Assembly (NCBI GenBank): GCA_963833985.1
Contig: CAWIAD010000001.1
Location: forward strand, 3,008,001 to 3,072,000
DNA: 64,000 nucleotides
Direction: 5' to 3'
Origin: an uncultured Planctomycetaceae bacterium
Lineage (GTDB): Bacteria > Planctomycetota > Planctomycetia > Isosphaerales > Isosphaeraceae
The notes beneath the pieces were generated by a model. The model was not told where the DNA came from and did no database searches. It was given only the letters and a program-made list of their open reading frames with translations. Shown here piece by piece: positions 49,130-64,000 of this stretch; the first letter of the stretch is position 1, and every line of letters begins with the position of its first letter. Made by a program: the position numbers and the translations under genes.

Positions 49130-49306
49130 GAGACGGATGGAGCCCTCAGAACGGTGGCGGCGACAATCGGTCCATCCATCGTACCCGCCGCAAGCCGGTT
49201 CGGCCACCTTGTCCGGACCGGGCCCCCGCTCTAGAATCGCCCTGCGTGTACCGACGCGCGAACAGTGCTGATGCACGATAAACCCGAGCGGGAGCCAGTC
49301 CTGACG

Positions 49307-50522
49307 ATGCCCGAGATTGATGACCAGCTTCGCGTCCTCTCCCGGGGAGTGGACCAGATTGCTCCGGAAGACGAGTTCCGCAGGAAGCTGGAGCGGTCAC
49401 TCCGCGATCGCCGTCCCCTGCGCGTCAAGTACGGTATCGATCCGACCGGCATCGACGTGCATCTCGGCCACACCGTTCCCCTGCGCAAGCTCAGACAGTT
49501 TCAGGACCTGGGACATGCTGCGGTCATCATCATCGGCAACTATACGGCACTCGTCGGAGATCCCTCGGGCCGCGACGAGACCCGCGCGGTTGACGCAAGA
49601 GCAGGTGCAGGCCAACGCCCGCGACTACCTCCAGCAGGTCGGCCGCATCATCGACCTCCAGCGCGCCGAGGTGCATCATAACGGCGACTGGTTCTCGCGC
49701 TGGTCGTTTCTCCAGGTACTCGACCTGATGCGGCACATGACCCTCGGTCAGATGAGCGCCCGTGAGGATTTCGCGCAGCGGATCGCCGCCGAGAAGCCCG
49801 TCTATTTGCACGAGTGCCTGTACCCCCTCATGCAGGGGTGGGATTCAGTCGAGATCAAGGCCGACGTGGAGTTGGGCGGAACGGAGCAGCTCTTCAGCTT
49901 GCTTGTCGCTCGGGACTTGCAGCACTCCCAGGGACAGGAACCGCAGGTGGCGATGACCATGCCGATTCTGGTCGGCACCGACGGCGTCCGCCGCATGGGG
50001 AAGAGTCTGGGGAATTACATCGGCGTGGGCGAGACGCCTGAGAACCAGTTCGGCAAGGTGATGAGCGTACCCGACGAGCCGATGCGCCAGTATTTCACGC
50101 TGCTGACGGACCTGCCGATCTCCGAGATCGATCGCCTGCTCGCTCCGGAGGTGAATCCCAGGGACGCCAAGGAGGTTCTCGGCAAGGCCGTCGTCACCCA
50201 GTATCACGGGGCCGAAGCCGCCGACCAGGCGGCCGCCGAGTTTCGCCGCCGGGCCGCGGGGGATGATCCTGACGAGATTCCTGATGTCACACTCTCCGCG
50301 GACAGGCTCGACGCCGAAGGCCGGATTCCCGGACCCATTCTCATCAAGGAACTGGGGCTCGAAACCAGCACGTCCAACGCGCGCCGTGTGATCGAGCAGG
50401 GCGGTTTCAACGTCGGCCCTCACCGGGAGGCCGTCTCCGACCCGAAAGCGCTGATCCAGGTGTCCGACGGCTTGATCGTCCGGGTGGGCAAGCGCAAGAT
50501 CGCAAGAGTACGGCTGGTCTGA
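49307..50522 (+). CDS. tyrS: Tyrosine--tRNA ligase; apparent frameshift near 49588
   Basis: [16 protein letters not shown] and GDPSGR in the first frame; [24 protein letters not shown] and an S4-like tail in the second. Confidence 0.95.
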
Positions 50523-50561: not shown

Positions 50562-51623
50562 ATGGCTCAGCACGGTTTCGGCATCATCGGCTGCGGCATG
50601 ATCGCCGAGTTTCATACCCGGGCGATCCTGGAGATCCCCGGCGCCCGGGTGGTGGCCGCCTGTAGCCGCAACCGTGCCAACGCCGACAAGATCGCCGGCC
50701 TCGCCGGCGGCTGCCGGGTGTTCGACCACCTGGACGCGATGCTGTCTCTTCCCGAGATTGACGTGGTCTGCATCTGCACGCCCAGCGGCGCCCATGCCGA
50801 GCCGGCCGTGCAGTCAGCCCGGGCTGGAAAGCACGTGGTCGTGGAGAAACCGCTGGAGATCACCCTGGCCCGATGCGACGCGATCATCGAGGCCTGCGAC
50901 GCGGCCGGCGTGCGGCTCTGCACCATCTTCCCCTCACGCTTCACGCCCGCCAACCTGCGCCTCAAGGAGGCCATCGAGGCTGGCCGGTTCGGCCGCCTCA
51001 CCCTTGGCGACACCCACGTCAAATGGTGGCGCACCCAGCAGTATTACGATTCCGGCGGCTGGCGCGGCACCTGGGCGCTGGACGGCGGCGGAGCGCTCAT
51101 GAACCAGGCCATCCACAACGTGGATCTGCTCTGCTGGCTGATGGGCGACGTCCAGTCGGTGGCGGCCCACTCGGCGACGCTGGCGCACCTGCGGATCGAG
51201 GTGGAGGATACCGCGGTGGCCAGCCTGCGGTTCGCGAATGGCGCGCTGGGTACCATCGAGGCGGCCACAAGCGCTTACCCGGGGCTGCTCAAGCGCACCG
51301 AGATCCACGGCGACCGGGGCTCCGCCCGGGTCGAGCAGGACGACATCACACTCTGGGAATTTCAGGAAAAGGTCCCCAGCGACAACGAGGTTTATTCGGC
51401 CATGGCGGCCGTCTCGGGCTTCAAGGCTGGCGCCAGCGATCCGCGCGGCATCACCCACGAAGGGCACCGTGACCAGATCCTTGATTTCCTCACGGCCATC
51501 GATCACAACCGGGCCCCCCTGGTGGACGGGCGCGAAGGGCGAAAGTCGGTCGAGATCATCCGGGCAATCTACCAGTCGGCCGGATCGGCACGGACCGTCA
51601 CGCTGCCATTCCACGAGCAATGA
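50562..51623 (+). CDS. Gfo/Idh/MocA family oxidoreductase
   Basis: GIIGCGMIA, CTPSGAH, GKHVVVEKP, GGGALMNQAIH. Confidence 0.95.
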   Translation: MAQHGFGIIGCGMIAEFHTRAILEIPGARVVAACSRNRANADKIAGLAGGCRVFDHLDAMLSLPEIDVVCICTPSGAHAEPAVQSARAGKHVVVEKPLEITLARCDAIIEACDAAGVRLCTIFPSRFTPANLRLKEAIEAGRFGRLTLGDTHVKWWRTQQYYDSGGWRGTWALDGGGALMNQAIHNVDLLCWLMGDVQSVAAHSATLAHLRIEVEDTAVASLRFANGALGTIEAATSAYPGLLKRTEIHGDRGSARVEQDDITLWEFQEKVPSDNEVYSAMAAVSGFKAGASDPRGITHEGHRDQILDFLTAIDHNRAPLVDGREGRKSVEIIRAIYQSAGSARTVTLPFHEQ

Positions 51624-52018
51624 GCCGCTTCGGCGGACCAGGCCTGCTTTCGTCCGCCGGCCATTGATCCGGACCTTCCCCTGGAACCGAATTCCGGCGC
51701 ACCCAGCCCGGTCGCCATCGCTCCGCGACGGAGCGCGCGGGGAATTGGAGGGGTCCTCCTCCGACTGGCATTCCGAGCAAGTATGGCTCGTGATCCAGCC
51801 AGACAAGACGCTCGGTCGGCAGCATGCCGCATGATCGTGCCTGGAATAAATTCATTTTAAGGTCCTGCGGACAATTGATGGCAGAAATGCCTAGTTTGGG
51901 ATAATCTAAGAGATACGCGCGGGAATGTCGCCTGATTCCCAGCTTGGATCGTGAGTCCGCAACACGTCGTTCAGTCAATTCGCTCGAGACGAGCCGATGC
52001 GCCTTTGGGAGGCGAGTG

Positions 52019-52933
52019 ATGCCCAAGTCCGTCTTCATCAGCTACAGCCGCGCGCAGGGCGACTGGGTATTCGACCGATTGATCCCTCTCCTGCAAGCGG
52101 CGGGGATCGAGATCTTTGTGGATCGAGAACGGTTCAAGGCCGGCCGACCGCTGATCCCGTCGATGGAAGAATGGCAGGACAAGGCCGACATCAACGTGCT
52201 GGTGTTCTCGCCGGATTATCTTGAGAGCGAGTATTGCCAGCATGAGATGAACCGGGCCATCAGGCGGGATCCGAAGTTCGCGAAAGGAATCATCATTCCG
52301 GTGATGCGCGCCGAGTGCGTCCTTCCCCCCAAGATCAAGAAGGCGAATCCGCTGTTCGTGGACCTCGCTCCTGACAGGGAGGCAGAACCCTGGAAGAAAC
52401 TGCTTGAAGCCTGCGAGGGGTCACTGGGGACTTGCCCCCGGGAGTGGCTGAGCGCCCGGGATTCGATGCGCAAGCACCTTGAGAAGAAAGAGTCCGTCAA
52501 CCTGGTCGTCAGCGGAGGCGCGAGCTGGCGTCAGCTCATCGAGCACCTGCACAAGGACAGGGGCAACGATCTGGGCCTGGTTGACCTTCAGAACCCGGCC
52601 ACCTTTTCGAGAAAGGGACTGGTGCAGGCAATCCTCAGCGCTGCCGGCTCGACCATGGAGCCTCCCGAGGAGCCCGCGGACCTGATGCTGCTTGGAGATG
52701 TCATCGAGAGCCGCAAGCTGACACGCATTGCATTGACGCATTTTGATCTGATCGCGAGACGCAGCCTTGGCAACAAGGATGACCTGTTCTGCGCCCTCCG
52801 CTACTGGCTGATGGAGACGCGCAAGCTGGTGCTGCTGGTGCAGTCGCGCGAACCGTTCAATCGCCTGGTCTCGGCCGACCACCCGCTATCGCCCATCTCG
52901 TTGAAGATTGTCGAGCTGAAGGAGCAGGCATGA
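52019..52933 (+). CDS. TIR domain protein with C-terminal degenerate P-loop/STAND-like domain
   Basis: VFISYSR, IFVD, VFSPDYLESEYCQHE, IIPV (TIR_2 pattern); GGGAGG RBS; stop overlaps the next ATG (ATGA). Confidence 0.88.
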   Translation: MPKSVFISYSRAQGDWVFDRLIPLLQAAGIEIFVDRERFKAGRPLIPSMEEWQDKADINVLVFSPDYLESEYCQHEMNRAIRRDPKFAKGIIIPVMRAECVLPPKIKKANPLFVDLAPDREAEPWKKLLEACEGSLGTCPREWLSARDSMRKHLEKKESVNLVVSGGASWRQLIEHLHKDRGNDLGLVDLQNPATFSRKGLVQAILSAAGSTMEPPEEPADLMLLGDVIESRKLTRIALTHFDLIARRSLGNKDDLFCALRYWLMETRKLVLLVQSREPFNRLVSADHPLSPISLKIVELKEQA

Positions 52934-55900
52934 ACCTCCTTAGCGGCCAGGCAGACGCGAGTGATCGCCGCTCGTGGCTCTCGTGGCTTCTCTTGCTGTA
53001 TCGCCGCCCTGGATCGTTTTGCGACGCCTGGGATAATCTGGCGGCGAGCCAGCAGTGGCGGCTTGGCATTCAGCTTGCCTTCCTCACGATCCCCTGCTTC
53101 TTCCTGATCAGCGTCGCATTCAACCAGGTCGTTCAGTTCCTCATTCCTCGACTTCATGCGCTGTTCAACGAGAGCGATGCCTTTCGAAACCCTCGCCGAG
53201 CGCGGCTTCTATGGCATTGCCGCTGTGGCCTGCCTCGAACTCCTCGTCTGGCGGCGCCGTGATCCGGTCGAGCTGGAGCATTCTGGAACCGAGCGGCTAC
53301 GCGCCGCCAGGCTCTTGACGATGCGGCGTATCGCCTTACTGGCCGCGGTGTTGCTGTCCCTCGTCTACACCGCGTCCACGTTGAGAACGGCGGACGGGAG
53401 TCCAGAGGTCCAGAATCTCGTCTTCCGGACAGTGATCACCGCGCTGGCGGCCTGCACGATGCCAATGGCTCTGGAACTGTACTTCTGGATCCACCGCAGA
53501 CCGACCGGAACCGAGGAGCCGATGATCGGAGACCGCTCGCGAGCCTCGGCGCGGATCGCGGGGCGTTTGCTTGTCTATTTGCCGGTGGTCTGCATACTGT
53601 ACCTGGTCGTCTTCTCCTACGTCGGACTGCCCATACCCTCCGGCGTGCCTGAAATTCAGACTCGGGCACAGTTTGCAAAGATCGTCGAGGCAGCGCTGGA
53701 AGGTGTGGTCAAAGGCGTGACGGTCGGAGCCGTGGCAGGGATGCTGGTCGGCTACCTGGCCAGCCCCACGCACGGGATCGCCCTGGGCTTCATCGGGGCG
53801 ATGGCCGGCGGACTGGCACTCGGCACAACGTCTCGTAACGCACCGACGTTACTGCTCATGATTGCGCTCTTCATCGCGCTACTCTGGCCACTGTTGACCG
53901 GAGGCATGCGCAAGGAACTCTCCGCCGGACACCTGGCCGCAGCGACCGTCGTTCTGGTGGTTCTCGTGTCGATCTACGCGCAGATCGAGAAGGGAGTCAA
54001 ACATCAGGATTTTCTCCAGACGGAAGGCCTGATCCGTGGAGTCGCCCTGGGGCTGATACTGGGACTGTGCCGTGGAGCGGCCGAGTCCGTATTGCTACGT
54101 AAGCGAATGAAGTACCGGATGGGCCTGCTGGGAGCGATGATCGTCGGCACGATCGTATTCTTTTCCACGCTGTCGGCCGAGCAGAAGGCGGCAGCGCATT
54201 CCTCTTCCGGGCCGATTGCTAGCCAGACAGCCACAGCGGACTCCGCTGCCAGATCGTCCGCCAGCCACACGGCGACAGCAAATCGCTCCGCCAGAGCGTC
54301 GCAGCGCTGGTTACCCCTGCTCGCCGGTCTCGTCCTGGGAGCCTCGTACCTGGTTGGAGTGCTTCGCATCTACTACCACGCGGTCCACCCGCTCTTCGTC
54401 ATGCCGAACCCCACCGGCGCCTGGTACCCGCGCCACCCCGTGGCCTGGGACGACCTGTGCTCGGTTTCGTTTCCCGGCCTTCATCGCCTGCTCGTCGCCT
54501 ATGCGGAACTCGAGCCCGAGGCCGCCTCGACCGAGATCAGCAGGCTCATTGCCGGCTATGACAGCCAGAAAGCGCAGGCCCTGCTGGCACGTGCGGTCCT
54601 GCTCATGCGTCAGTCGGGCCGGGTTCAGAACCTCTCGGAACTTGGGCCGATTTTCGCCGAGCTTGCCCGAGACGATTTCGAGTTCCTGCGCAAGCCGCCG
54701 AAGCTCAATGCCCTGATTGGCGAGATCGTCAGCCTCCACAACCGGCTGCGCACCATCGACCGGCCAACCTTCCGCGAGCCGACGGCGCGCGAGCTCTGTA
54801 CGATGATCGACAGGTTCCGCTACCAGGTGGACAACTTCCAGGAGCCATGGGCGACCGAGTTCCGACTGGCCGCCGAATGCTGGCTGCGCATCGCCCGGAA
54901 ACTGCTCGGCGAGGCCGCGGCCGTCGTGGAGAAAGAGCCGACTCCCCAGGTCTTTGCGCGGGCGACCCCGTCGATCGCGAGACCGAGGCATTCGTCAACC
55001 GCGCAGGGGTCATCGGCGATCTCGAGCGCCTGGTGATGCTGAACACGGGCTGCCCCGGAATCGTCCTTTACGCCCGCCGCAGGATGGGAAAGTCGACCGT
55101 CCTGCGCAACCTCGGCGGATTCCTTCCGCCCTCGGTCCGACCGGTGACCATTTCCATGCAAGATCCTCGGGCATTTTCCTCGTTCCCGTCTTTCATGGGC
55201 CTGGCAGCCAGGCTTCTGAGCGAGGCTGCTCCCGGCGGCAATCATGCGTCCCCTGCTCACGACCTGCCAAGCTTCTTCACGTTCCTGGACAGGTGCAACC
55301 ATACGCTCGAGTCCGAGGGGCGGCGCATCCTCCTAAGTATTGACGAGTACGAGTACATTGATTCCAAGATCGCCGCCAATGTATTCCCCGAGGATTTCTT
55401 GAACCTGGTGAGGGAATCGATCCAGTCCCATCGGTCGCTCACGTGGATCTTCGCCGGCAGTCACGAGATCAACGAGCTCACGAGCGCACCCTGGGCTTCC
55501 TCGCTGGTCAGCGCGCGGACGATCGAGATCCCGATGTTCACGGAGGAAGAAACCCATCTCTTGCTCACCGACCCTTTGAGACACTCGCAGACCTTCGCAC
55601 GCAACGGCGCCGCGCGGCCTCGCCCGTGCTTCAGCGAGGAGTTCTGGGGAAATGGCGGAGTCCACCGCGTCCACAGGGAGGCAGGTGGCTGGCCGCACCT
55701 GGTCCAGCTCATCGCCGAGACGGTCGTCGACATGCTCAACGACGAGAATGGCAGCCGGGTCGACGATCGGCTCATCGACCGTGCGCTGGACCGTGCCGTC
55801 GTGAACGGACACAACGTCTTCTACGAGCTACTCTATAGCGAGTCGCAGAAGAACCCAGGCGAATGGGATTACGTCTCCGCCTTCCGCCGTGCCGAAACTC

Positions 55901-56025
55901 AGACTCCTCCCGCCGACGACCTCATCTGGCGGTCGCTACGGCGACGCAAGCTGGTCGTCGAGGAGGGCGGCCTGTGGCGGCTGCGGGTCCCGATGATGCA
56001 GCGCTGGCTTTGCACCCGCGGCTGA
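52930..56025 (+). CDS. Multi-pass membrane protein with C-terminal STAND/AAA-type ATPase; apparent frameshifts near 53183 and 54957
   Basis: Three overlapping ORFs join into ~1030 aa: about 10-12 TMs, HPVAWDD, helical region, QVF-RAGDPV, Walker A ARRRMGKST, Walker B LLSIDEYE, FAGS, GGWP, winged-helix-like end. Confidence 0.8.
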
Positions 56026-56208
56026 CACCCTTCAAATACCCGGTGTTCCGCGTCCGCGAATGCGCACCCGATTTCGCGACTCTTCCCGACCAGGCCGATC
56101 TTCTGCTTGATCGAGGTGCCTGAAGCAGGATATAAGACGGATCAGCCCCGGAGGGTCAGCGCGGCATTCCGAACCGCAACCGGCGCCACTGGTCAACGGA
56201 GTGACACC

Positions 56209-57204
56209 ATGCCCCGCCACAAGAAACGCAGGCCCGCGCTCGATTACCTCGTCTATTCCGTCGTTCGCCTGGTGGTGGCGTTCGCGCAAACGCTCACCAT
56301 CGGCCAGTCCTACGCGTTGGCCCATGCCCTGGCCTGGCTGATGTACCAGGTGGACAGACGCCACCGATCCGTCGGCATCGAGAACCTTCGCCTGGCCTAC
56401 GGGCCCTGTCTGGACAATGCCCAGCAAGACCACATCGTCCGTTCGGTCTACCTCCACTTCTGCATGATGATCATGGAGCTGTTGCACATCCCGCGCAAGG
56501 TGCACCTGGCCAACTGGAGACAGTACGCCACGCTGGTCGGGCACAAGCCGGTGCTCGACCGGTTCATGACCGGCGGACCGGTGATCCTGCTTACCGGCCA
56601 TTACGGCAACTGGGAGCTGGCCGGCTACCTCTTCGGCCTTTTCGGCTACCCCACGTATTCCGTGGCCCGCACGCTCGACAACCCCTATCTCGACCGCTAC
56701 CTGCGCGACTTCCGGGAGCGTACGGGCCAGAAGTTGATCCCCAAGTCGGGCGGCTACGACCAGATCCTCGAGGTGCTCCAGTCGGGCCGTGCTCTTTCCA
56801 TGCTGGCCGACCAGGACGCCGGCCAGCGCGGGATGTTCGTCGATTTCTTCGGCCGTCCGGCCTCGACGCACAAGGCGATCGCGCTCTTGTCCATCGAGCA
56901 CCAGGCGCCGGTGGTCGTGGGGGTGGCCCGGCGCGTCGGACCTGGGTTCCGCTACGAGATCCGCTGCGCCCAGATCATCCAGCCCGGGGAGTTCAGCGGA
57001 ACCGCCGACGACGCCCGCCTGCTGACTCAACGCTACACCTCGGCGCTCGAGGAGCTGATCCGGCAGGACCCCACGCAATACCTCTGGCTGCATCGGCGAT
57101 GGAAGCACCAGCCACAGCCGCGCAAGGCGAGAACGGCCGGCGCTCACGAATCGCTCACGGCGACTTCTCAAACATCTGCTGGACCGGCACAATCTTCACC
57201 GTGA
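56209..57204 (+). CDS. Lipid A biosynthesis acyltransferase (LpxL/HtrB family)
   Basis: TGHYGNWE, LDNP, LADQDAG, FFGRPAST, PTQYLWLHRRWK; GGAG RBS. Confidence 0.92.
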   Translation: MPRHKKRRPALDYLVYSVVRLVVAFAQTLTIGQSYALAHALAWLMYQVDRRHRSVGIENLRLAYGPCLDNAQQDHIVRSVYLHFCMMIMELLHIPRKVHLANWRQYATLVGHKPVLDRFMTGGPVILLTGHYGNWELAGYLFGLFGYPTYSVARTLDNPYLDRYLRDFRERTGQKLIPKSGGYDQILEVLQSGRALSMLADQDAGQRGMFVDFFGRPASTHKAIALLSIEHQAPVVVGVARRVGPGFRYEIRCAQIIQPGEFSGTADDARLLTQRYTSALEELIRQDPTQYLWLHRRWKHQPQPRKARTAGAHESLTATSQTSAGPAQSSP

Positions 57205-58678
57205 CTCCCTTGAGCGGAAACGCGGCGATCTGCCCGTCCTCGGCCAGGATACTCTCCGGCGTTCCCTGCGTGTCGTAGGTGATCGGCGACGGCGTGCCTT
57301 TGGTCAGGGTCACGCGCAGTTCCTCGGCGTTCTGCGCCACGATGGCGACCTTCATGCCGCCTGGCTTCAAATGCTTACGGACGGCCGCGTTGACTTGCTC
57401 CACGGTGAGCTTTGGCAACTGGCTCGCCAGCTCGGTGACCAGGTCGTTGCGGCCGTAGAACCGGCCATCGATCGCATAGCCCAGCCGGCGCGACAGGGTC
57501 TGAACCCAGAGCTTGCTGTAATTGAGCAGGAAAGCGCGCGTGGCCTCGAAATCGGCCGGGCTCATGCCGTCGTTCACCAGCCGGTCCAGCTCCCAGAGTG
57601 CCGCACGAAGAGCGAAGGCCGCCTTGTCTTTTGGAACGGGCCGCACCCAGATGGAGAAGTACTGCTGTCTTCTCGGGTTATTCGCAACCTCGAACGTGCT
57701 TCGACCTTCCTGGATGAAGTCCTCGATGTACGAGTAATCGCCGTAATTCAGCCCGCGCTTGCCGCGCAGGTCCTGCATCAGCTTGCCATTGAACGTGCGG
57801 TGTTCGCCCAGGTACGAGTTCGCAACGGCCAGCGCGTAGAAGTCGTCGTCGTGACGGGTGACGTCGATCGGGAAGCCGATCGAGATGGCGGTGGCCTCGG
57901 CCGGCTTGGCCACGATCGTCACTTCCAGTCCCGCGGGCGGGGCCGGGCGGCCGAGTACCGGCAAGGTCCGCTCGTGGCGGGGCAGCGCCGCGAGCTTTGC
58001 CTCCACCAGCGCGGCATCGTCCGATTCAAAGCCGCCCGCCATGCCCAGCGTGAGCGCCTTGCGCGTGTAGAACCGCTGGTGAAACGCCTTCACATCCTCC
58101 AGCGTGATCGCCTTCAACCCCTGCACGGTGCCAAGGTCGGGATGGCCGTAAGGATGGCCCTGGTACAGCTCGCACTGGAGCGTCCACTTGCCAAGCTCTT
58201 CATCGTTATTGCCGCGCAGGCCCTTGCTGACGTAGTCGATCGCCTCGTTGCGCAGCCGCTCGAAGTCGTCGGGAGCGAAGCGGGGGGCCGTCAGCAGCTC
58301 GGTGACCAGGGGAATATAGGCCCCGAGGTTGTCGTGATGGATGGTCCCCTCGAAGACCGTGACTTCCTTATGGCAGACGCCGTCCAGGCTTGCGGCCATG
58401 GGGTAGAACTTCTCCAGGAGTTGTTCGTACGAGAAGCTTGTCGTGCCTCCCTGCGCGATCATCGCCATGGCAAGCGCGGCCAGGCCCTCCTTGCCTTTGG
58501 GGTCATCCTGCGAGCCGACGCGGAACACGAATCGAAACGAAACCAGCGGGCTCGACGGCGAGGGAAGCAGGATCGCGCCGCGATTCCCACCCTCGGCCAG
58601 CGGCGCCGCCGCCAATCCGGCGGCCGGCATCGTCAGAAGCAGCGCGAGTGCCAGCAACAGATGGGGCTTTCCGCTCAT
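57155..58678 (-). CDS. M16 family peptidase, non-catalytic subunit
   Basis: GSQDDPKGKEGLAAL without HxxEH; HPYGHP; LRGKRGLNYG. Confidence 0.9.
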   Translation of the reverse strand: MSGKPHLLLALALLLTMPAAGLAAAPLAEGGNRGAILLPSPSSPLVSFRFVFRVGSQDDPKGKEGLAALAMAMIAQGGTTSFSYEQLLEKFYPMAASLDGVCHKEVTVFEGTIHHDNLGAYIPLVTELLTAPRFAPDDFERLRNEAIDYVSKGLRGNNDEELGKWTLQCELYQGHPYGHPDLGTVQGLKAITLEDVKAFHQRFYTRKALTLGMAGGFESDDAALVEAKLAALPRHERTLPVLGRPAPPAGLEVTIVAKPAEATAISIGFPIDVTRHDDDFYALAVANSYLGEHRTFNGKLMQDLRGKRGLNYGDYSYIEDFIQEGRSTFEVANNPRRQQYFSIWVRPVPKDKAAFALRAALWELDRLVNDGMSPADFEATRAFLLNYSKLWVQTLSRRLGYAIDGRFYGRNDLVTELASQLPKLTVEQVNAAVRKHLKPGGMKVAIVAQNAEELRVTLTKGTPSPITYDTQGTPESILAEDGQIAAFPLKGVTVKIVPVQQMFEKSP

Positions 58679-60035
58679 TTCTGCTTCTCCGTCTCGAGGG
58701 TGACCACTGTTTCGTTGGCCAGGGTGAAGTACCTGGCGGCCACACGCTGGAGGTCAGCGGGCGTGAGCCGGTCGAAGGCTGTGAAGAGATCGTTCATGGC
58801 GTCGGGACGGCCTGTGATGGCGATCGATTCGCCCACGGCACGCGCGACTGCATCGGCGCTGCGGAGCGAAGCGGCAAAATCATATTTCAGGTGCGATCGG
58901 ACCGCGTTCAGCCGCGCGGCGTCGATCGGAGTTCGGGCCGCGTCCGCCAGAGCCGCGGAGATCTTCTCCCGCACGGCCGCTAGATCGGCCGGCGTCCGCA
59001 CCCGCGCAGGATCGTGAAGAGGCCCGGATCGCGGTGCTCGGAGGGGTCGGCCATGAGCGTCACGACCTTTTGCTCCTTGAGCACCAAGTCCTGGTACAGC
59101 GGGCTGGTCTCACCGAAAAGCACCTGCTGCAACGCCCCCAGCGCAGCGGTGTCCGGATGGGTCGGATCCGAGGCGGGAACGTGATAACCCAGGTAGAGGA
59201 TCGGCAACGTCGGCACGGGCCAGGTGACCCGTGCGCTGCGGGGCTGGGTCTGCGGGGGCTCCGTGGGAACTTCCACGCTGGCCTTGCCCCGCGCCCACGC
59301 CCCGTAATGGGTCTTGACCAGCGACACGAGCTCGGCATGCTTGATGTCGCCGGTCACCACGATGGTGCAGTTCTCGGGACGGTACCAGCGATCGAAGAAG
59401 ATCTTGCTGTACGCATACTGATTCGGCATCTCCTTGATGTCTTCCAGGAACCCGAGCGTCGTATGCTTGTACGTGTGCCGCGTGAAGGCCGTGTCCTGCA
59501 TGGCCTCTTCGAGCTTGAGAAAGGGCGACGAGGCGTTCTTGTTGTACTCTCCTAAGACCGCGCGGGCTTCTTTCTGGAACGATGGCTCATCGTACTTCAG
59601 GTTCTGGAACCGATCTGACTCGAGCTCCACGGCCGTCTCCAGCGCCGAGGCGGGAACCGTCATGTGATAGCACGTCCAATCATCGGTGGTGAAGGCGTTT
59701 GAATCCGCACCCAGCGACTTCAGGACGTCGTTGTATTTCTGTTGCGGATACCGCTCTGTACCGCGGAACATCATGTGCTCGAAGAAGTGGGCGAAGCCGG
59801 AGAGCCCCTTCTCCACCTCGTTGCGCGAGCCGGTGCGGACCACCGTGTAGTAGGCGATGATCCCCGGCGAGTCGAACGGGATCGAGACCACTGTCAGCCC
59901 GTTCTCAAGAGTCGTCTGCCGGATCGGAAACGGGAAGATCGGCTTGTCGCTGGCCTGCCCTGGTCCGGCCCCGGCAACCAGCCCCGCCAGAGCCAGCACG
60001 ATCAAAGGCGCGAATTTTATACTTTGATATCTCAA
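58675..60035 (-). CDS. M16 family peptidase, catalytic subunit; apparent frameshift near 59008
   Basis: GSRNE, GFAHFFEHMMFRGT, NAFT, WYRPEN; AAGGAG before TTG; C-terminus continues in ORF 58675-59001 and couples to the next gene. Confidence 0.9.
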
Positions 60036-60076
60036 CAGAAAGAACTCCTTGATGAATTGCGGCTCGCGGCCGGACA

Positions 60077-61141
60077 TCAGCGCGACGTGAACTCTCGCTT
60101 CGCGCCGTCGGGCCCGATCTGCACGCTGAACTTTGCACCGCCTGGTGCAACCGCGACGTGAATGAACTGGCCGCCGGCGACATCGGTGTTGGCGATCAGA
60201 GCCGGCTCGGTGTTGTCCTCCGAGGACGTCATGGCATTGCGATGAAGCTGGTAGGCCGCCTGGATCGAGGCGATGGACCGCAACAGCTTCACGGTCGCCG
60301 GCGATCCTCCCTTGCGCGGGCCGTTGTTCATGATGGCCACGGTCGGCTGGATGCTCCTCAGGAGGACCGGGTTGTTCGAGATATCCATGCCATGATGCGT
60401 GACCTGAAAGAGGTCGATGTTCCCCAGCAGGTTCGAAGGGCACACAAGCTGGCGCTCGATGTTCCAGGTCAGGTCGCCACAGTCCAGGAAATCGAACGCG
60501 CCGAACTCGAACCGGATTGCCAGGCTGCGAGCGTTATCGGAGGAATCGACGGGCAAGTCGGGCGGTGCGCTCGAACATTCGGGATTCGCCAGCGCCGTTG
60601 CAGGCTGACGCATCACCTTGCCGCCCGAGGCCACCACCAGGGCCTTCAGATTGCCCGGTAGAGGGATCGAATCGCCGGCCTTGAGGGCCGTCCGCTTGCC
60701 ATGGGAAGCGGCGCGGTAAGCGACTCCGAGCGGGTCGTCTGCCCTGGGACCATCCGGAAAATCGAGGTCCGGATTGGCGTCCTCAGGCAACCCTCGATCC
60801 CAGAAGTGCCTGATCTCGATGGCCTTCGCCAGTCCGGCCACGCCGCCGAAGTGGTCCATGTGCCAGTGCGTCGTGACAAGGTGGTCCAGGTGGTCGCACC
60901 CGGCCAGGTCGCGCAGGACGTGCACGATCCGGCGCGGATCGCGGTCCTCAAAACCGGGCCAACCGGAATCGATCAGCACAGATTCCTTCTCGGGAGACAC
61001 CACCAGGGTGGCCGCTCCCCCCATCACGTCGATGAAGTAAAGATCGAGCGACCGCGAGGCCGGCTCTTCCCCGTATGCCGGTCCCATCCCGAGGAGACAT
61101 CCGGCGAGAAGTGCGAAACCGGCGCGCTTGCTAAGATTCAT
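60077..61141 (-). CDS. Secreted MBL-fold metallo-hydrolase (ComEC/Rec2-like)
   Basis: IDVMGGAATL, LIDSG, THWHMDHFGG, DNARS, GDL, HHG. Confidence 0.9.
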   Translation of the reverse strand: MNLSKRAGFALLAGCLLGMGPAYGEEPASRSLDLYFIDVMGGAATLVVSPEKESVLIDSGWPGFEDRDPRRIVHVLRDLAGCDHLDHLVTTHWHMDHFGGVAGLAKAIEIRHFWDRGLPEDANPDLDFPDGPRADDPLGVAYRAASHGKRTALKAGDSIPLPGNLKALVVASGGKVMRQPATALANPECSSAPPDLPVDSSDNARSLAIRFEFGAFDFLDCGDLTWNIERQLVCPSNLLGNIDLFQVTHHGMDISNNPVLLRSIQPTVAIMNNGPRKGGSPATVKLLRSIASIQAAYQLHRNAMTSSEDNTEPALIANTDVAGGQFIHVAVAPGGAKFSVQIGPDGAKREFTSR

Positions 61142-61634: not shown

Positions 61635-64000
61635 TTATCGCACGCACGGAGTGTGCCACGCATGATCGACGTGACGATCCTGGCGGTGACAGAAGATTCT
61701 TACTGGCTGGACTTCTTCTGGGCCGAGTTGAGTTCGGTGCAGGGAACCCGGCTTGTCGTGACGGGCTCGGTGGAGGAGGCATGCAACCTGCTCGATTGTG
61801 CAGGGGCGAGCCTGATTGTGGTTGACTGGCAAGATGCCATGACCTCCACCGGTCAGATGGATCGCTTGCTGTGGACGAACTCGATACTGCCCCGGCCGGC
61901 GGCGGTCCTTGTGATCGACGAAGCGTATCGGGCCGATCGAGCGATGTCCTTGTTCCAGATGGGCGTGGACGAGTACGTCGGTTTCGCCGAGCACGCGGGG
62001 CAGTTGCAGGAAGTCCTTGGCACCTGGCTGGGACGCAGGCCCATGCCGGCGCTTCATGGCGGGGCAGCGAGCGGGGCGGCCGCCAGGCCGGTGCAGGAAC
62101 CGGCGTCCCTGTCCGAGCGCTGGGCGGCCACGGCGAACTCGGCCTGAAACCCAACCCGCTGCCGGATCTTGTGCCCGGGCGCCTCGAGGCGCGGCTGGAG
62201 ACGGTGATGCCGCGGCGTGCGCGGGCATCCGCGCCGGGGTGGTCGCGGGCCGGTCCAGGCCCAGAGGGGCCGTTCCGGATCGGACTTCCTCCAGCCTGCG
62301 CAGATACTTCGCATAAAGCTGGGTGTGGCGGCTCTCGGGCGTCAGGTGCTTGCCATCGATGAAGAGGGCGAGCACCGAGGTTGTCGGCTGAAGCAGATGG
62401 CCGGCGGTGACCACCAGGTTGGCTCGCTTGCCGGTTTCCAGCGAACCCAGCCGGTCGCCCACTCCCAGAATCTGTGCCGGGGTCAGGGTCACCGCTCGCA
62501 GTGCCACGTCTTCCGGAAGGCCGAAGGCGACTGCGGTCGCGGCCTCGTAGGGAAGGTTCCGCGCGTTCGTCGCGTTCGCGGCCCCTCCCCGCCTGGAGCC
62601 GATCGCGAACGTGACGCCCGCGGCGTGCAGCCTTGCGGGGTTCGCATACGCGGAATCGTACGGGTCGTGGTCGTGCGCGGGCACGTTCAGCGTTCCGGCC
62701 ACGATCACCGGTACTCCGGCCTCCTTCAGCTCTGCGGCGACCTTCCACGCCTCTTCCGCTCCCGAGATCACCGCTTTCAGCTTCAGTTCCCTGGCGATGG
62801 CCAGGGCATCGAGGATCTCGGTGCGGTGATTGGCCATGAAGATCACCGGCTTCTGGCCCCGTGCATAGGGGACCAGCGCGGCCAGGCGGGGGTCGAAGGG
62901 AGGTGGCACCGCGCCTCGCGACCGCGCCTGGTCGACGATCTCGCCGTACTTCAGCCCCCTGCGGAAATGCTCGCGGATCGATTCAAGCTGCTCCTTCCGC
63001 CGCGCCTGCGGGTCAGCCCCTGCGCCAGCGGGTCCCTGGCCCGGGATGCGCCGGCGCGCCTCGGGAGACCTCGGGACGAATGCGGGGATGGTGACATCCA
63101 GCGCGGCACAGTCCGCCACGACAAGTTCACGTGGCACCCAGCCGCGCAGATTGACCACGCAGCCTTGCCCGGCAATGAATCCGCCCGTGGGCTGCACGTA
63201 CGCAGCCAGCACGCCGTTGGCGCGGGTCACGGGGATATGCTCCGAGTCCGGCTTGAGCGCCGTGCTGGCGCGGAGCTCGGGCTCGAAACGGCTGGCGTCG
63301 GCGAAGTCCTGGGTCACCGGCAGGCTATCGATCTCCGAGAGCCCGACCGTGGTGCCGGCGTCCACCAGACCGGGCCAGAGGTCCAGACCGGCCAGTTCGA
63401 TGGTCTGCGCCTCGGGCGGTACGCGTGTGCCCGCCGGGCCGATGGCGGCGATCTTGCCGTCGGCCACGACCAGCGTGCCGTGCGGGATCGCCGGGCCGGA
63501 CACCGGATGCAGTGTCGCGCCCACAAGGGCGAAGGTGCGCTTCGGCTGCGTGGCGAGCTCGATCACCCGGTTCCGTGCCGATTCGCTCGCCTGGGGCATG
63601 GCATGATGGTCGCCCGGCCGCGCGGCCAGCTTGCCGCCCGGCTCCACGCGCTGGAAGTAAACCTCACCGTCGATCAGGGCCAGCTCGCACCGCGAGAAGG
63701 CGTCGAAGGGGTGGGCGTTGAACAGAGCGATGTCGCCGTCCTTGCCCACCTCGATCGAGCCGAGACGGCGCTCCAGCCCGAGCTCGCGCACGGGTTGAGC
63801 GTGATCATCGCCAGGGCCTGAACCTCGCTGACGCCGCCGTACTTCACCATCTTCGCCGCTTCCAGGTTGAGATGGCGGTTCAACTCCTCGCTGTCGCTCT
63901 TGATGCAAACGTTCGCGCCGGCTTTGGTCAGCAGCGCGGCATTGAACGGAATCGCGTCATAGGCCTCGACCTTGTACGCCCACCAGTCCGAGAACGTGGA
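61635..64000 (-). CDS. Tandem-domain amidohydrolase family protein; 5' end outside window, frameshift near 63790; true stop probably near 62150
   Basis: [46 protein letters not shown]; 3' part of the ORF becomes low-complexity and overlaps the opposite-strand gene. Confidence 0.85.
61662..62147 (+). CDS. Atypical stand-alone receiver (CheY-like) domain protein
   Basis: [28 protein letters not shown] pattern; GGAG RBS; AT-rich upstream region. Confidence 0.6.
   Translation: MIDVTILAVTEDSYWLDFFWAELSSVQGTRLVVTGSVEEACNLLDCAGASLIVVDWQDAMTSTGQMDRLLWTNSILPRPAAVLVIDEAYRADRAMSLFQMGVDEYVGFAEHAGQLQEVLGTWLGRRPMPALHGGAASGAAARPVQEPASLSERWAATANSA

Follow-up and report, generated by a model that had tools for sequence, protein, structure and literature searches.

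In a stretch of 64,000 nucleotides of DNA from an uncultured Planctomycetaceae bacterium (GCA_963833985.1, contig CAWIAD010000001.1, positions 3,008,001-3,072,000 of the forward strand; the whole stretch is called the window here) we studied a pair of overlapping genes that is a candidate for an unnamed, widespread and modular two-gene conflict system. Gene 1 encodes a predicted TIR domain followed by a core of the nucleoside triphosphatase (NTPase) fold that has lost its motifs. Gene 2 encodes a hydrophobic block, a helical domain and an ATPase. The two genes are paired far beyond chance. That they serve in defence or conflict in some way is quite probable when all such readings are pooled. 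The specific reading that we prefer, a split NLR-like defence switch, has in our judgement about an even chance of being right; in it the ATPase would oligomerise and dock the dead domain, and the clustered TIRs would destroy nicotinamide adenine dinucleotide (NAD+). Homologue loci and proteins are labelled with L- and P-numbers (L018, P0302 etc.), and the planctomycete copy is called the window copy. The features of the pair, in window coordinates, are as follows.

52019..52933, + strand: gene 1 (304 aa), TIR plus dead STAND/Orc-Cdc6-type NTPase core (open frame)
52031..52405, + strand: TIR_2 domain, residues 5-129 (Pfam TIR_2)
52244-52246, + strand: putative catalytic Glu76 (motif YCxHE)
52436..52930, + strand: dead NTPase alpha/beta core without lid (model fold; profile match to the partner ATPase)
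52930..52933, + strand: ATGA stop/start overlap of genes 1 and 2 (sequence)
52930..56025, + strand: gene 2, about 1030 aa if one gene (three frame pieces; intact homologue L018)
53060..54370, + strand: membrane block with 10-12 hydrophobic segments (Kyte-Doolittle window)
54434..54957, + strand: HPVAWDD motif (54434-54454) and all-helical domain (alignment; L011 model helical there)
54958..56025, + strand: ATPase (Pfam AAA_22, 32.3 bits, cut-off 27)
55072-55095, + strand: Walker A ARRRMGKS (alignment)
55342-55347, + strand: Walker B DE (alignment)

Gene 1 combines a TIR domain with a dead NTPase core

A preliminary description of this DNA had read gene 1 as a TIR domain plus an alpha/beta domain, and both Pfam and the modelled fold agreed with it. 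TIR_2 matched with 80.5 bits (cut-off 28, E=1.9e-22). In an AlphaFold2 model (mean predicted local distance difference test, pLDDT, of 91.8; alignment of 87 sequences) residues 1-134 resembled TIR folds, with Z 17.0 and a root-mean-square deviation (rmsd) of 3.0 over 125 residues to 4w8h. Glu76, which we take to be the catalytic residue from its position in the YCxHE motif, was kept in 87/87 aligned proteins, and the domain is predicted to cleave NAD.

By modelled fold, alignment and motif loss the second domain of gene 1 is a dead NTPase, the inactive NTPase domain that the preliminary description had proposed. The core of about 165 aa has the alpha/beta fold of the Orc1/Cdc6/STAND class: model residues 140-304 matched ORC5 (5ujm_E) with Z 14.4 and an rmsd of 2.7 over 150 residues, Cdc6/Orc1 (2qby) with Z 15.2 and PAB2304 with Z 13.6. 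Its profile aligned in register with the profile of the gene-2 ATPase (E=4.7e-4, probability 33%). GK[ST] was missing from the P-loop in 87/87 gene-1 relatives. Trp170 (52526-52528) stands where the Walker A Lys is expected, and a Trp was found at this position in 40/44 aligned dead domains; Walker B was worn down to THFD. Several basic residues were conserved in the core, namely Arg198 (44/44), Arg248 (40), Arg261 (39) and Arg268 (38). The core formed the C-terminal end in nearly all of 150 representatives, six of them having more than 60 extra C-terminal residues.

Sequence searches with single proteins did not reach the family. For 12 dead domains Pfam gave no P-loop family, iSTAND models included, at E up to 1; genomes scanned with a single dead-domain sequence yielded nothing, and a PDB sequence search gave no significant match for the gene-1 or the gene-2 protein. 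Relatives were reached through alignments. An Atlas search with the dead domain led to AAA_22, AAA_35 and nSTAND1 clusters at 0.90-0.94, which we treat as a lead only.

Gene 2 encodes an ATPase with a predicted membrane block

Gene 2 had been described as about 10-12 transmembrane segments, a helical linker and a P-loop ATPase, and this was borne out by the hydropathy scan, a model of the homologue L011 and the AAA_22 match. The order along the chain is a conserved N-terminal segment, the hydrophobic block, the HPVAWDD motif, the helical domain and the ATPase, which ends the chain. The Kyte-Doolittle hydropathy scan, which is not a topology prediction, gave 10 hydrophobic segments in the block at >=1.6 and 12 at >=1.4. 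Across 57 relatives with an intact frame the block was 52-416 aa long and consisted mostly of 4-residue GxxxG repeats; the longest, less repetitive form (10-12 segments) was found in the window copy and L018. The block was missing in L005, L068, L069 and P0356. His, Pro, Trp and Asp of HPVAWDD were kept in 44/44, and an Atlas search with the HPVAWDD-helical region gave no usable match.

Judged from the alignment and from the model of a homologue, the gene-2 ATPase is of the STAND/Orc-Cdc6 class with intact motifs. The Walker A Lys, the Walker B Asp-Glu and the SART Arg were all present in 44/44 gene-2 relatives, and the first Walker A position was Ala in 4/44, as it is in the window copy. The fold was judged on the L011 model, the pLDDT of which is middling (66.8). 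Its ATPase matched ORC5 (4xgc_E) with Z 13.5 and an rmsd of 3.4 over 161 residues, and the top fold matches of the model were ORC5, archaeal ORC2, SSO1545, PAB2304, MalT and Avs3 (Z 11-13.5). In the aligned proteins, 8 full-length and 44 partial, the ATPase was always the C-terminal part. Its GGWP motif is conserved and is followed by a short C-terminal domain, with no C-terminal repeat sensor; the L011 model is of low confidence in this downstream part (pLDDT 46-81 beyond residue 520). A GxP helical domain and then a winged helix are reportedly a STAND feature.

Three homologous loci showed unusual forms of the gene. In L077:4312-8545 a ParA/MinD-like domain replaces the membrane block, with a TIR-dead-NTPase gene upstream, and this variant recalls TIR-ParA-STAND systems as presented in the accessible part of bioRxiv 10.64898/2026.10.19.760177. 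Gene 2 of L010:6853-10719 (1288 aa) carries a tandem duplicated helical-ATPase unit and adjoins a fused DarT-DarG gene. In L049:1459-2628 the start of gene 2 is present in four tandem near-identical 314-bp copies, either an assembly artefact or a duplication related to an insertion sequence (IS).

The two genes are inherited together

That the two genes belong together, as the preliminary description held from the ATGA overlap at 52930-52933, was seen in homologues as well. A search with gene 2 only yielded 70 loci, and a search with gene 1 yielded 10 genome and 26 metagenome loci. The dead domain stood beside gene 2 in 56/70 of the former; 11 loci end at the contig edge upstream and three (L085, L111, L112) are truncated copies without it, which leaves 56/59 among the gene-2 loci that have upstream DNA. 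In the gene-1 search gene 2 came next in all loci with two exceptions: L042 is a fragment next to a transposase, and L043 is a TIR-only match that is probably not a member and was counted among 12 groups without the dead domain. With near-duplicates merged, both genes were held by 76/89 non-redundant groups, and gene 1 alone occurred as one fragment among the 89. The gene order was reversed once (L073). ATGA was present at 44/68 scored gene-1/gene-2 junctions in relatives, and the overlap is consistent with translational coupling. The distances of the two domains correlated over 43 pairs (r=0.68, 0/2000 permutations), which shows co-inheritance only.

Both proteins were found as a single chain in L069, P0302 and P0356, and gene 1 was doubled in L068 and L069. 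The latter two loci (L068:5099-8434, L069:5117-8434) hold two tandem TIR-dead-NTPase units, the second of which in L069 is fused to the helical-ATPase part without a membrane block. An intact gene 1 followed by a broken gene 2 was seen in L007, L095 and L099, possibly as a result of assembly errors.

The dead domain fell into 314 clusters at 50% identity, and gene 2 had at least 607 relatives at 90%. Ten phylum labels appeared in the tree, a quick version with three outgroup rows on long branches, which placed the window copy with L018 (98) near planctomycete rows (88); this is no proof of transfer. Strong matches were found in 4/401 genomes of the class, the window genome among them, and in 1/10 other genomes of the genus, with four further weak matches class-wide (E ~7e-4). 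There was usually one copy per genome.

The N-terminal domains are exchangeable

A conserved partner C-terminal domain behind variable N-terminal effectors, as foreseen in the preliminary description, emerged from a local-profile census of the best 150 of 314 dead-domain representatives: 104 carried a TIR, 32 were short or fragmentary and 14 had other N-termini. Among 21 selected proteins Pfam matched XRE-helix-turn-helix (XRE-HTH, 5 proteins), class III cyclase, CHAT, trypsin (one alone, one with TIR), alpha/beta-hydrolase and DUF4145, and weakly Lon_C and Mrr_cat (P0039). This set overlaps with the domains that PMC7159879 and PMC8195603 list for conflict systems; these and the other publications cited below were accessible in part, and statements about them refer to those parts. 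In P0087 and P0283 a C-terminal ABC (AAA_21) ATPase of Septu/retron type is fused to the dead NTPase domain, which suggests a different partner for these two proteins.

The upstream gene of the distant pairs L141, L143 and L147 keeps its Walker A intact and has, at the N-terminus, no effector, a SIR2-like domain or a TIR; that of L142 is intermediate (GPPGCGKRR; profile match E=1.6e-6). The downstream gene is of the membrane-helical-ATPase type (L141:2082-5392, L142:5072-8381, L143:3848-8039, L147:3689-7554). All four were taken from weaker matches and are examples, not a survey. Such live and intermediate pairs likely show the origin of the dead core, and live, intermediate and dead partner NTPases together offer a model for pseudo-enzymes becoming immune adaptors. 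The Npun2340/2341 family may cover the wider live-live pairs.

Comparison with known systems

The pair had not been recognised as a named defence system, and PADLOC, NCBIfam and the literature gave the same answer. No family in PADLOC (database of 2023) or NCBIfam fitted the pair beyond the TIR domain. PADLOC had none for the window gene-2 pieces at E 0.1, nor for L018, and L011 gave only weak STAND_TPR and PDC-S27 rows. A description of the pair was likewise not found in full-text literature, a coverage that excludes most subscription journals.

nSTAND2 is a mobile two-gene operon with two STAND modules, one of which has eroded NTP motifs and variable effectors, and a hetero-multimer has been proposed for it (Kaur et al. 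2021, PMC8195603). The pair resembles it in that adjacent STAND modules, one inactive, form a two-gene unit. However, the inactive module of nSTAND2 has a winged helix, tetratricopeptide repeats (TPRs), a C-terminal GT4 or HEPN effector and no membrane block (PMC8195603), whereas in the gene-1 protein the effector (mostly TIR) comes first and is followed by a dead core that lacks a lid, and in the active partner a membrane block and the HPVAWDD-helical domain precede the ATPase. With respect to the arginine-finger feature of nSTAND2, gene 2 has an invariant Arg, and the dead core has mostly Lys or Gln there and other conserved Arg residues. Three accession stems of the gene-1/gene-2 family were absent from 12/13 supplement files of PMC8195603. 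Membership in nSTAND2 was rejected because the inactive module has no winged helix, TPRs or C-terminal GT4/HEPN effector.

Inactive STAND domains behind N-terminal TIR, caspase-like and trypsin domains are also known as iSTAND and iSTAND2 from MoxR-vWA ternary systems (PMC7159879, PMC8195603). The domain order is shared with gene 1, but the partner here is a STAND-class ATPase and not a MoxR-vWA pair. Among the 222 neighbouring genes scanned at 77 loci MoxR did not occur, and vWA occurred once (L063). With gfo and lpxL as flanks, and no adjacent MoxR and vWA, membership in the ternary systems was rejected.

In BREX the inactive lidless BrxB binds BrxC at its ATP site and bridges to PglZ (PMC13326643, PMC12839542). 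There too the dead and the active domain are of one STAND/Orc-Cdc6 class, and the L011 model matched the BrxC entries 9zdx and 9zll with Z 10.7 and 10.4. BrxB-BrxC would be the best mechanistic model for the pair, partner docking being an analogy. In the pair, unlike in BREX, dead domain and effector form one protein; BrxC, moreover, is soluble and DNA-binding. PglZ, PglX/BrxX and BrxA were absent from the module and from the two nearest genes per side, and PADLOC gave no BrxB or BrxC match. The pair was rejected as a BREX member for the lack of PglZ and PglX/BrxX in the locus.

Avs proteins also have a STAND-class ATPase with swappable effectors (TIR, SIR2, Mrr-like nuclease, proteases; PMC13581612), and Avs3 was a fold match of gene 2 (Z 11.3). 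Effector, NTPase and a large C-terminal sensor lie on one chain in Avs (PMC13581612), whereas the pair has its effector on a separate chain, the gene-2 protein ends with the ATPase, and it is the N-terminal membrane block that varies. The three single-chain fusions were also without a C-terminal sensor. We rejected Avs membership on the missing effector-NTPase-C-terminal-sensor chain and the missing PADLOC Avs/NLR match. Five accession stems were absent from the 7 smaller supplement files of PMC13581612, and gene 2 may be listed as an unnamed clade among its 589 STAND clades.

The Thoeris-type model ThcB4 gave 33.5 bits against a cut-off of 220, and only the TIR domain matched. A TIR with a catalytic glutamate is shared by Thoeris, TIR-SAVED and SPARTA; unlike in these, no SIR2/SLOG, Macro, SAVED or Argonaute partner was found with the window TIR. 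Thoeris was rejected with the ThsB-type model far below cut-off and no ThsA-type partner (SIR2-SLOG, TM-Macro). The TIR-I to IX systems share the catalytic glutamate as well (PMC11350192), and the accessible part of that paper held no description of the pair.

Proposed mechanism and alternative readings

In the bacterial STAND receptors known so far, a single chain carries both sensor and effector, and phage proteins are detected in the cytoplasm. In the split NLR-like switch, the hydrophobic block of gene 2 would instead anchor the protein in the inner membrane while its ATPase would lie on the cytoplasmic side, and the variable block or the HPVAWDD-helical region would sense an infection cue. 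ATP-bound gene-2 subunits would then assemble back-to-face and the dead core would take an open face, a docking step modelled on BREX, in which BrxB, itself inactive, attaches to BrxC at its ATP site (PMC13326643). The clustered TIR would cleave NAD+ and arrest or kill the cell. The membrane-free copies (L005, L068, L069, P0356) keep the TIR, and therefore the TIR can be the only evident output. If the reading is true, splitting the receptor in this manner, with a membrane block at the N-terminus of the ATPase protein and a dead ATPase as adaptor, would be a second route from detection to killing, and possibly one that detects at the membrane. The family is tractable: it has only two genes, intact, membrane-free and single-chain members exist, and it can be tested directly in a laboratory host. 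Intact pairs include L018, the closest relative, L011, which has a short membrane block, and L071 from a cultured Azospirillum. A more far-reaching form, which we regard as rather doubtful, would be an NLR-like receptor whose hypervariable glycine-zipper block, built of 4-residue repeats, detects phage within the membrane, with the dead ATPase as a universal adaptor, like a CARD or death domain, for TIR, caspase-like, trypsin, nuclease, cyclase and HTH outputs; the live pairs (L141, L143, L147) and the intermediate L142 would record the origin of the adaptor.

The preliminary description had already suggested a split NLR-like system that senses an envelope-level cue, and had named enrichment in defence islands as support for it. 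The dead NTPase, the linkage, the swaps and the fusions argue for the split; the fold common to both NTPase domains, the invariant Glu76 and the patchy spread count in favour of the switch as well. For the neighbourhood we compared the two nearest called genes per side of 77 loci (222 genes, simple heuristic gene calling) with 125 control genes; the latter came from 40 sites chosen arbitrarily in those genomes, 35 of which yielded genes. Genes of the toxin-antitoxin, defence and mobile classes, which were assigned by hand after the data had been seen, made up 45/222 neighbours and 11/125 control genes, about a twofold difference (p=0.006, the genes not being independent). By a strict count 20/40 loci had such neighbours compared with 8/35 control sites (p=0.018), which supports the defence-island expectation weakly. 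PADLOC on 30 hand-picked proteins found Septu-like, PsyrT, DarTG and NucC-like genes next to single copies, and a PDC-S01 neighbour too.

A number of observations weigh against the split switch. Besides the hand assignment of classes, the difference in neighbourhood fell to 23/40 against 12/35 (p=0.064) under a lenient count, in which ambiguous conflict genes were added on both sides. The enrichment is modest, toxin-antitoxin and IS genes account for most of it, and half of the loci, the window included, lie amid housekeeping genes. No family members were found in viral contigs or plasmids, and no experiment on any family member was found in full-text literature. Envelope sensing as a general rule is weakened by the membrane-free copies and by L077, which has ParA in place of the block. 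The position of the dead core that aligns to the invariant SART Arg of the partner was Lys in 23, Gln in 11 and Arg in 2 of 44. XRE-HTH, the commonest non-TIR partner domain (5/150 representatives), fits regulation as well as killing. Finally, in STAND proteins the effector is usually N-terminal to the ATPase; in gene 2 the membrane block sits in this position, and there is no C-terminal sensor.

This last point bears on a reversed polarity of the pair, which we consider unlikely. Gene 1 would then sense and signal, its dead NTPase sensing an invader or nucleic acid and its TIR, cyclase or protease giving a threshold signal. In gene 2 the ATPase ring would bring together the glycine-zipper membrane block, which would act as a pore-forming effector. 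The GxxxG repeats that make up most of the block suit such a role, as do the conserved Arg residues of the dead core and the HTH-bearing copies L051 and L090, which retain the block. Moreover, iSTAND has been read as an invader sensor that signals through a TIR, protease or cyclase at its N-terminus (PMC7159879, PMC8195603). However, the block-less copies persist with both genes or as fusions, an eightfold range of block length is easier to square with a variable sensor or anchor than with a defined pore, and domain searches of gene 2 found no receptor domain for a nucleotide signal.

Two further readings are less probable still. The ATPase could act as a guard, in the manner of an antitoxin, that keeps the TIR-dead-NTPase protein at the membrane in an inactive state until a phage protein or membrane damage frees it to self-assemble and cleave NAD+. 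The fusions L069, P0302 and P0356 could not release their effector, and an intact gene 1 beside a broken gene 2 in L007, L095 and L099, if these are not assembly errors, also speaks against a guard. On its side are the strict linkage with the coupled junction, gene 1 being almost never alone compared with three broken gene-2 copies without it, and the finding that BrxB blocks further addition of BrxC at the face that it has bound (PMC13326643). To an equally small degree we credit a role outside defence, in envelope or stress signalling, where the ATPase would pass a membrane cue to interchangeable outputs (an NAD-derived signal, a cyclic nucleotide, transcription). The XRE-HTH and class III cyclase variants, the many copies in housekeeping surroundings and the usual single copy per genome would fit it, and defence and non-defence STAND clades are interspersed, 198/589 being classed as defence (PMC13581612). 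It is opposed by the very patchy presence even within the genus, by the nuclease, HEPN-like and protease swaps and by the enriched toxin-antitoxin and mobile neighbours; nor was a conserved neighbour or target gene present among the scanned neighbours.

Insertion site and integrity of the window copy

The pair is bounded by two host genes and an upstream gap.

50562..51623, + strand: left flank, Gfo/Idh/MocA-like oxidoreductase, host gene outside the module (best NCBIfam rows below cut-off)
51624..52018, no strand: intergenic gap, 395 bp
56209..57204, + strand: right flank, LpxL-like acyltransferase, host gene outside the module (best NCBIfam rows below cut-off)

Both flanking genes were confirmed as named in the preliminary description, though below the NCBIfam cut-offs. 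Its AT-rich gap of about 400 bp was overstated: the guanine plus cytosine (GC) content of the whole gap is 60% compared with 65% in the genome, and the AT-rich part is a 100-bp core only (51825-51925, 45.5% GC). A weak sigma-70-like match lies in the gap at 51878-51905 (9/12, extended TG), and 2 such sites were seen in the region against 0.5 +/- 0.8 expected.

In genomes of the same genus the gfo orthologues were 80-85% identical. At this site the pair was absent in 8/8 relatives fetched, and lpxL followed gfo directly or one gene later in 4/8. The two genes were about 120 bp or less apart in two relatives, a PDC-S03-like gene lay between them in two, and four had other DNA. As the pair is missing at the gfo site in relatives, we concluded from this sequence comparison that the window pair is an insertion at a variable site between gfo and lpxL. 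No meaningful repeats were found at its ends. Across the genus (L150-L157; window 51624-56208) the site after gfo was empty, held the PDC-S03-like (Uma2-type) gene in two, or held unrelated blocks with transposase remnants.

In the assembly gene 2 switches frame at ~53155-53225 and at ~54958, so that it lies in frame 1 to 53154, in frame 2 from 53225 to 54994 and in frame 1 from 54958. The three pieces aligned in order to the intact 1030-aa L018:5039-8128 with 42%, 45% and 63% identity, and the gene upstream of it is 59% identical to gene 1. The switches are probably assembly errors, because this intact homologue exists and because the nearby tyrS, 3 kb off, is also broken, being split across two frames (profile 8-95 and 94-404). 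The M16 peptidase gene in the window likewise switches frame, and the assembly probably carries frequent indel errors. It is unlikely that both switches are true mutations and the window copy a decaying pseudogene of a family that is real elsewhere, a reading that concerns the copy and not the mechanism of the family. Two switches within 3.1 kb do exceed what the local rate suggests, and decayed copies are known in the relatives L085 and L111. Against decay stand the frame-split M16 peptidase gene and tyrS, which is essential, as well as the three aligned pieces of gene 2, in which every motif is intact and no in-frame stop occurs. We hold the window copy to be probably intact in the organism. 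Frameshift-like genes in the window lie at 49265-50522, 58675-60443 and 61635-64000 (tyrS, M16 peptidase and an amidohydrolase-like gene near the window end).

Neighbours of single homologous loci

A Septu-like SIR2-PtuA fusion and PtuB lie directly upstream of the pair in L024:2233-5909. In two acidobacterial loci (L063:9847-14178, L088:9316-13263) Tubulin_2 genes were found downstream of the pair, together with the vWA gene in L063.

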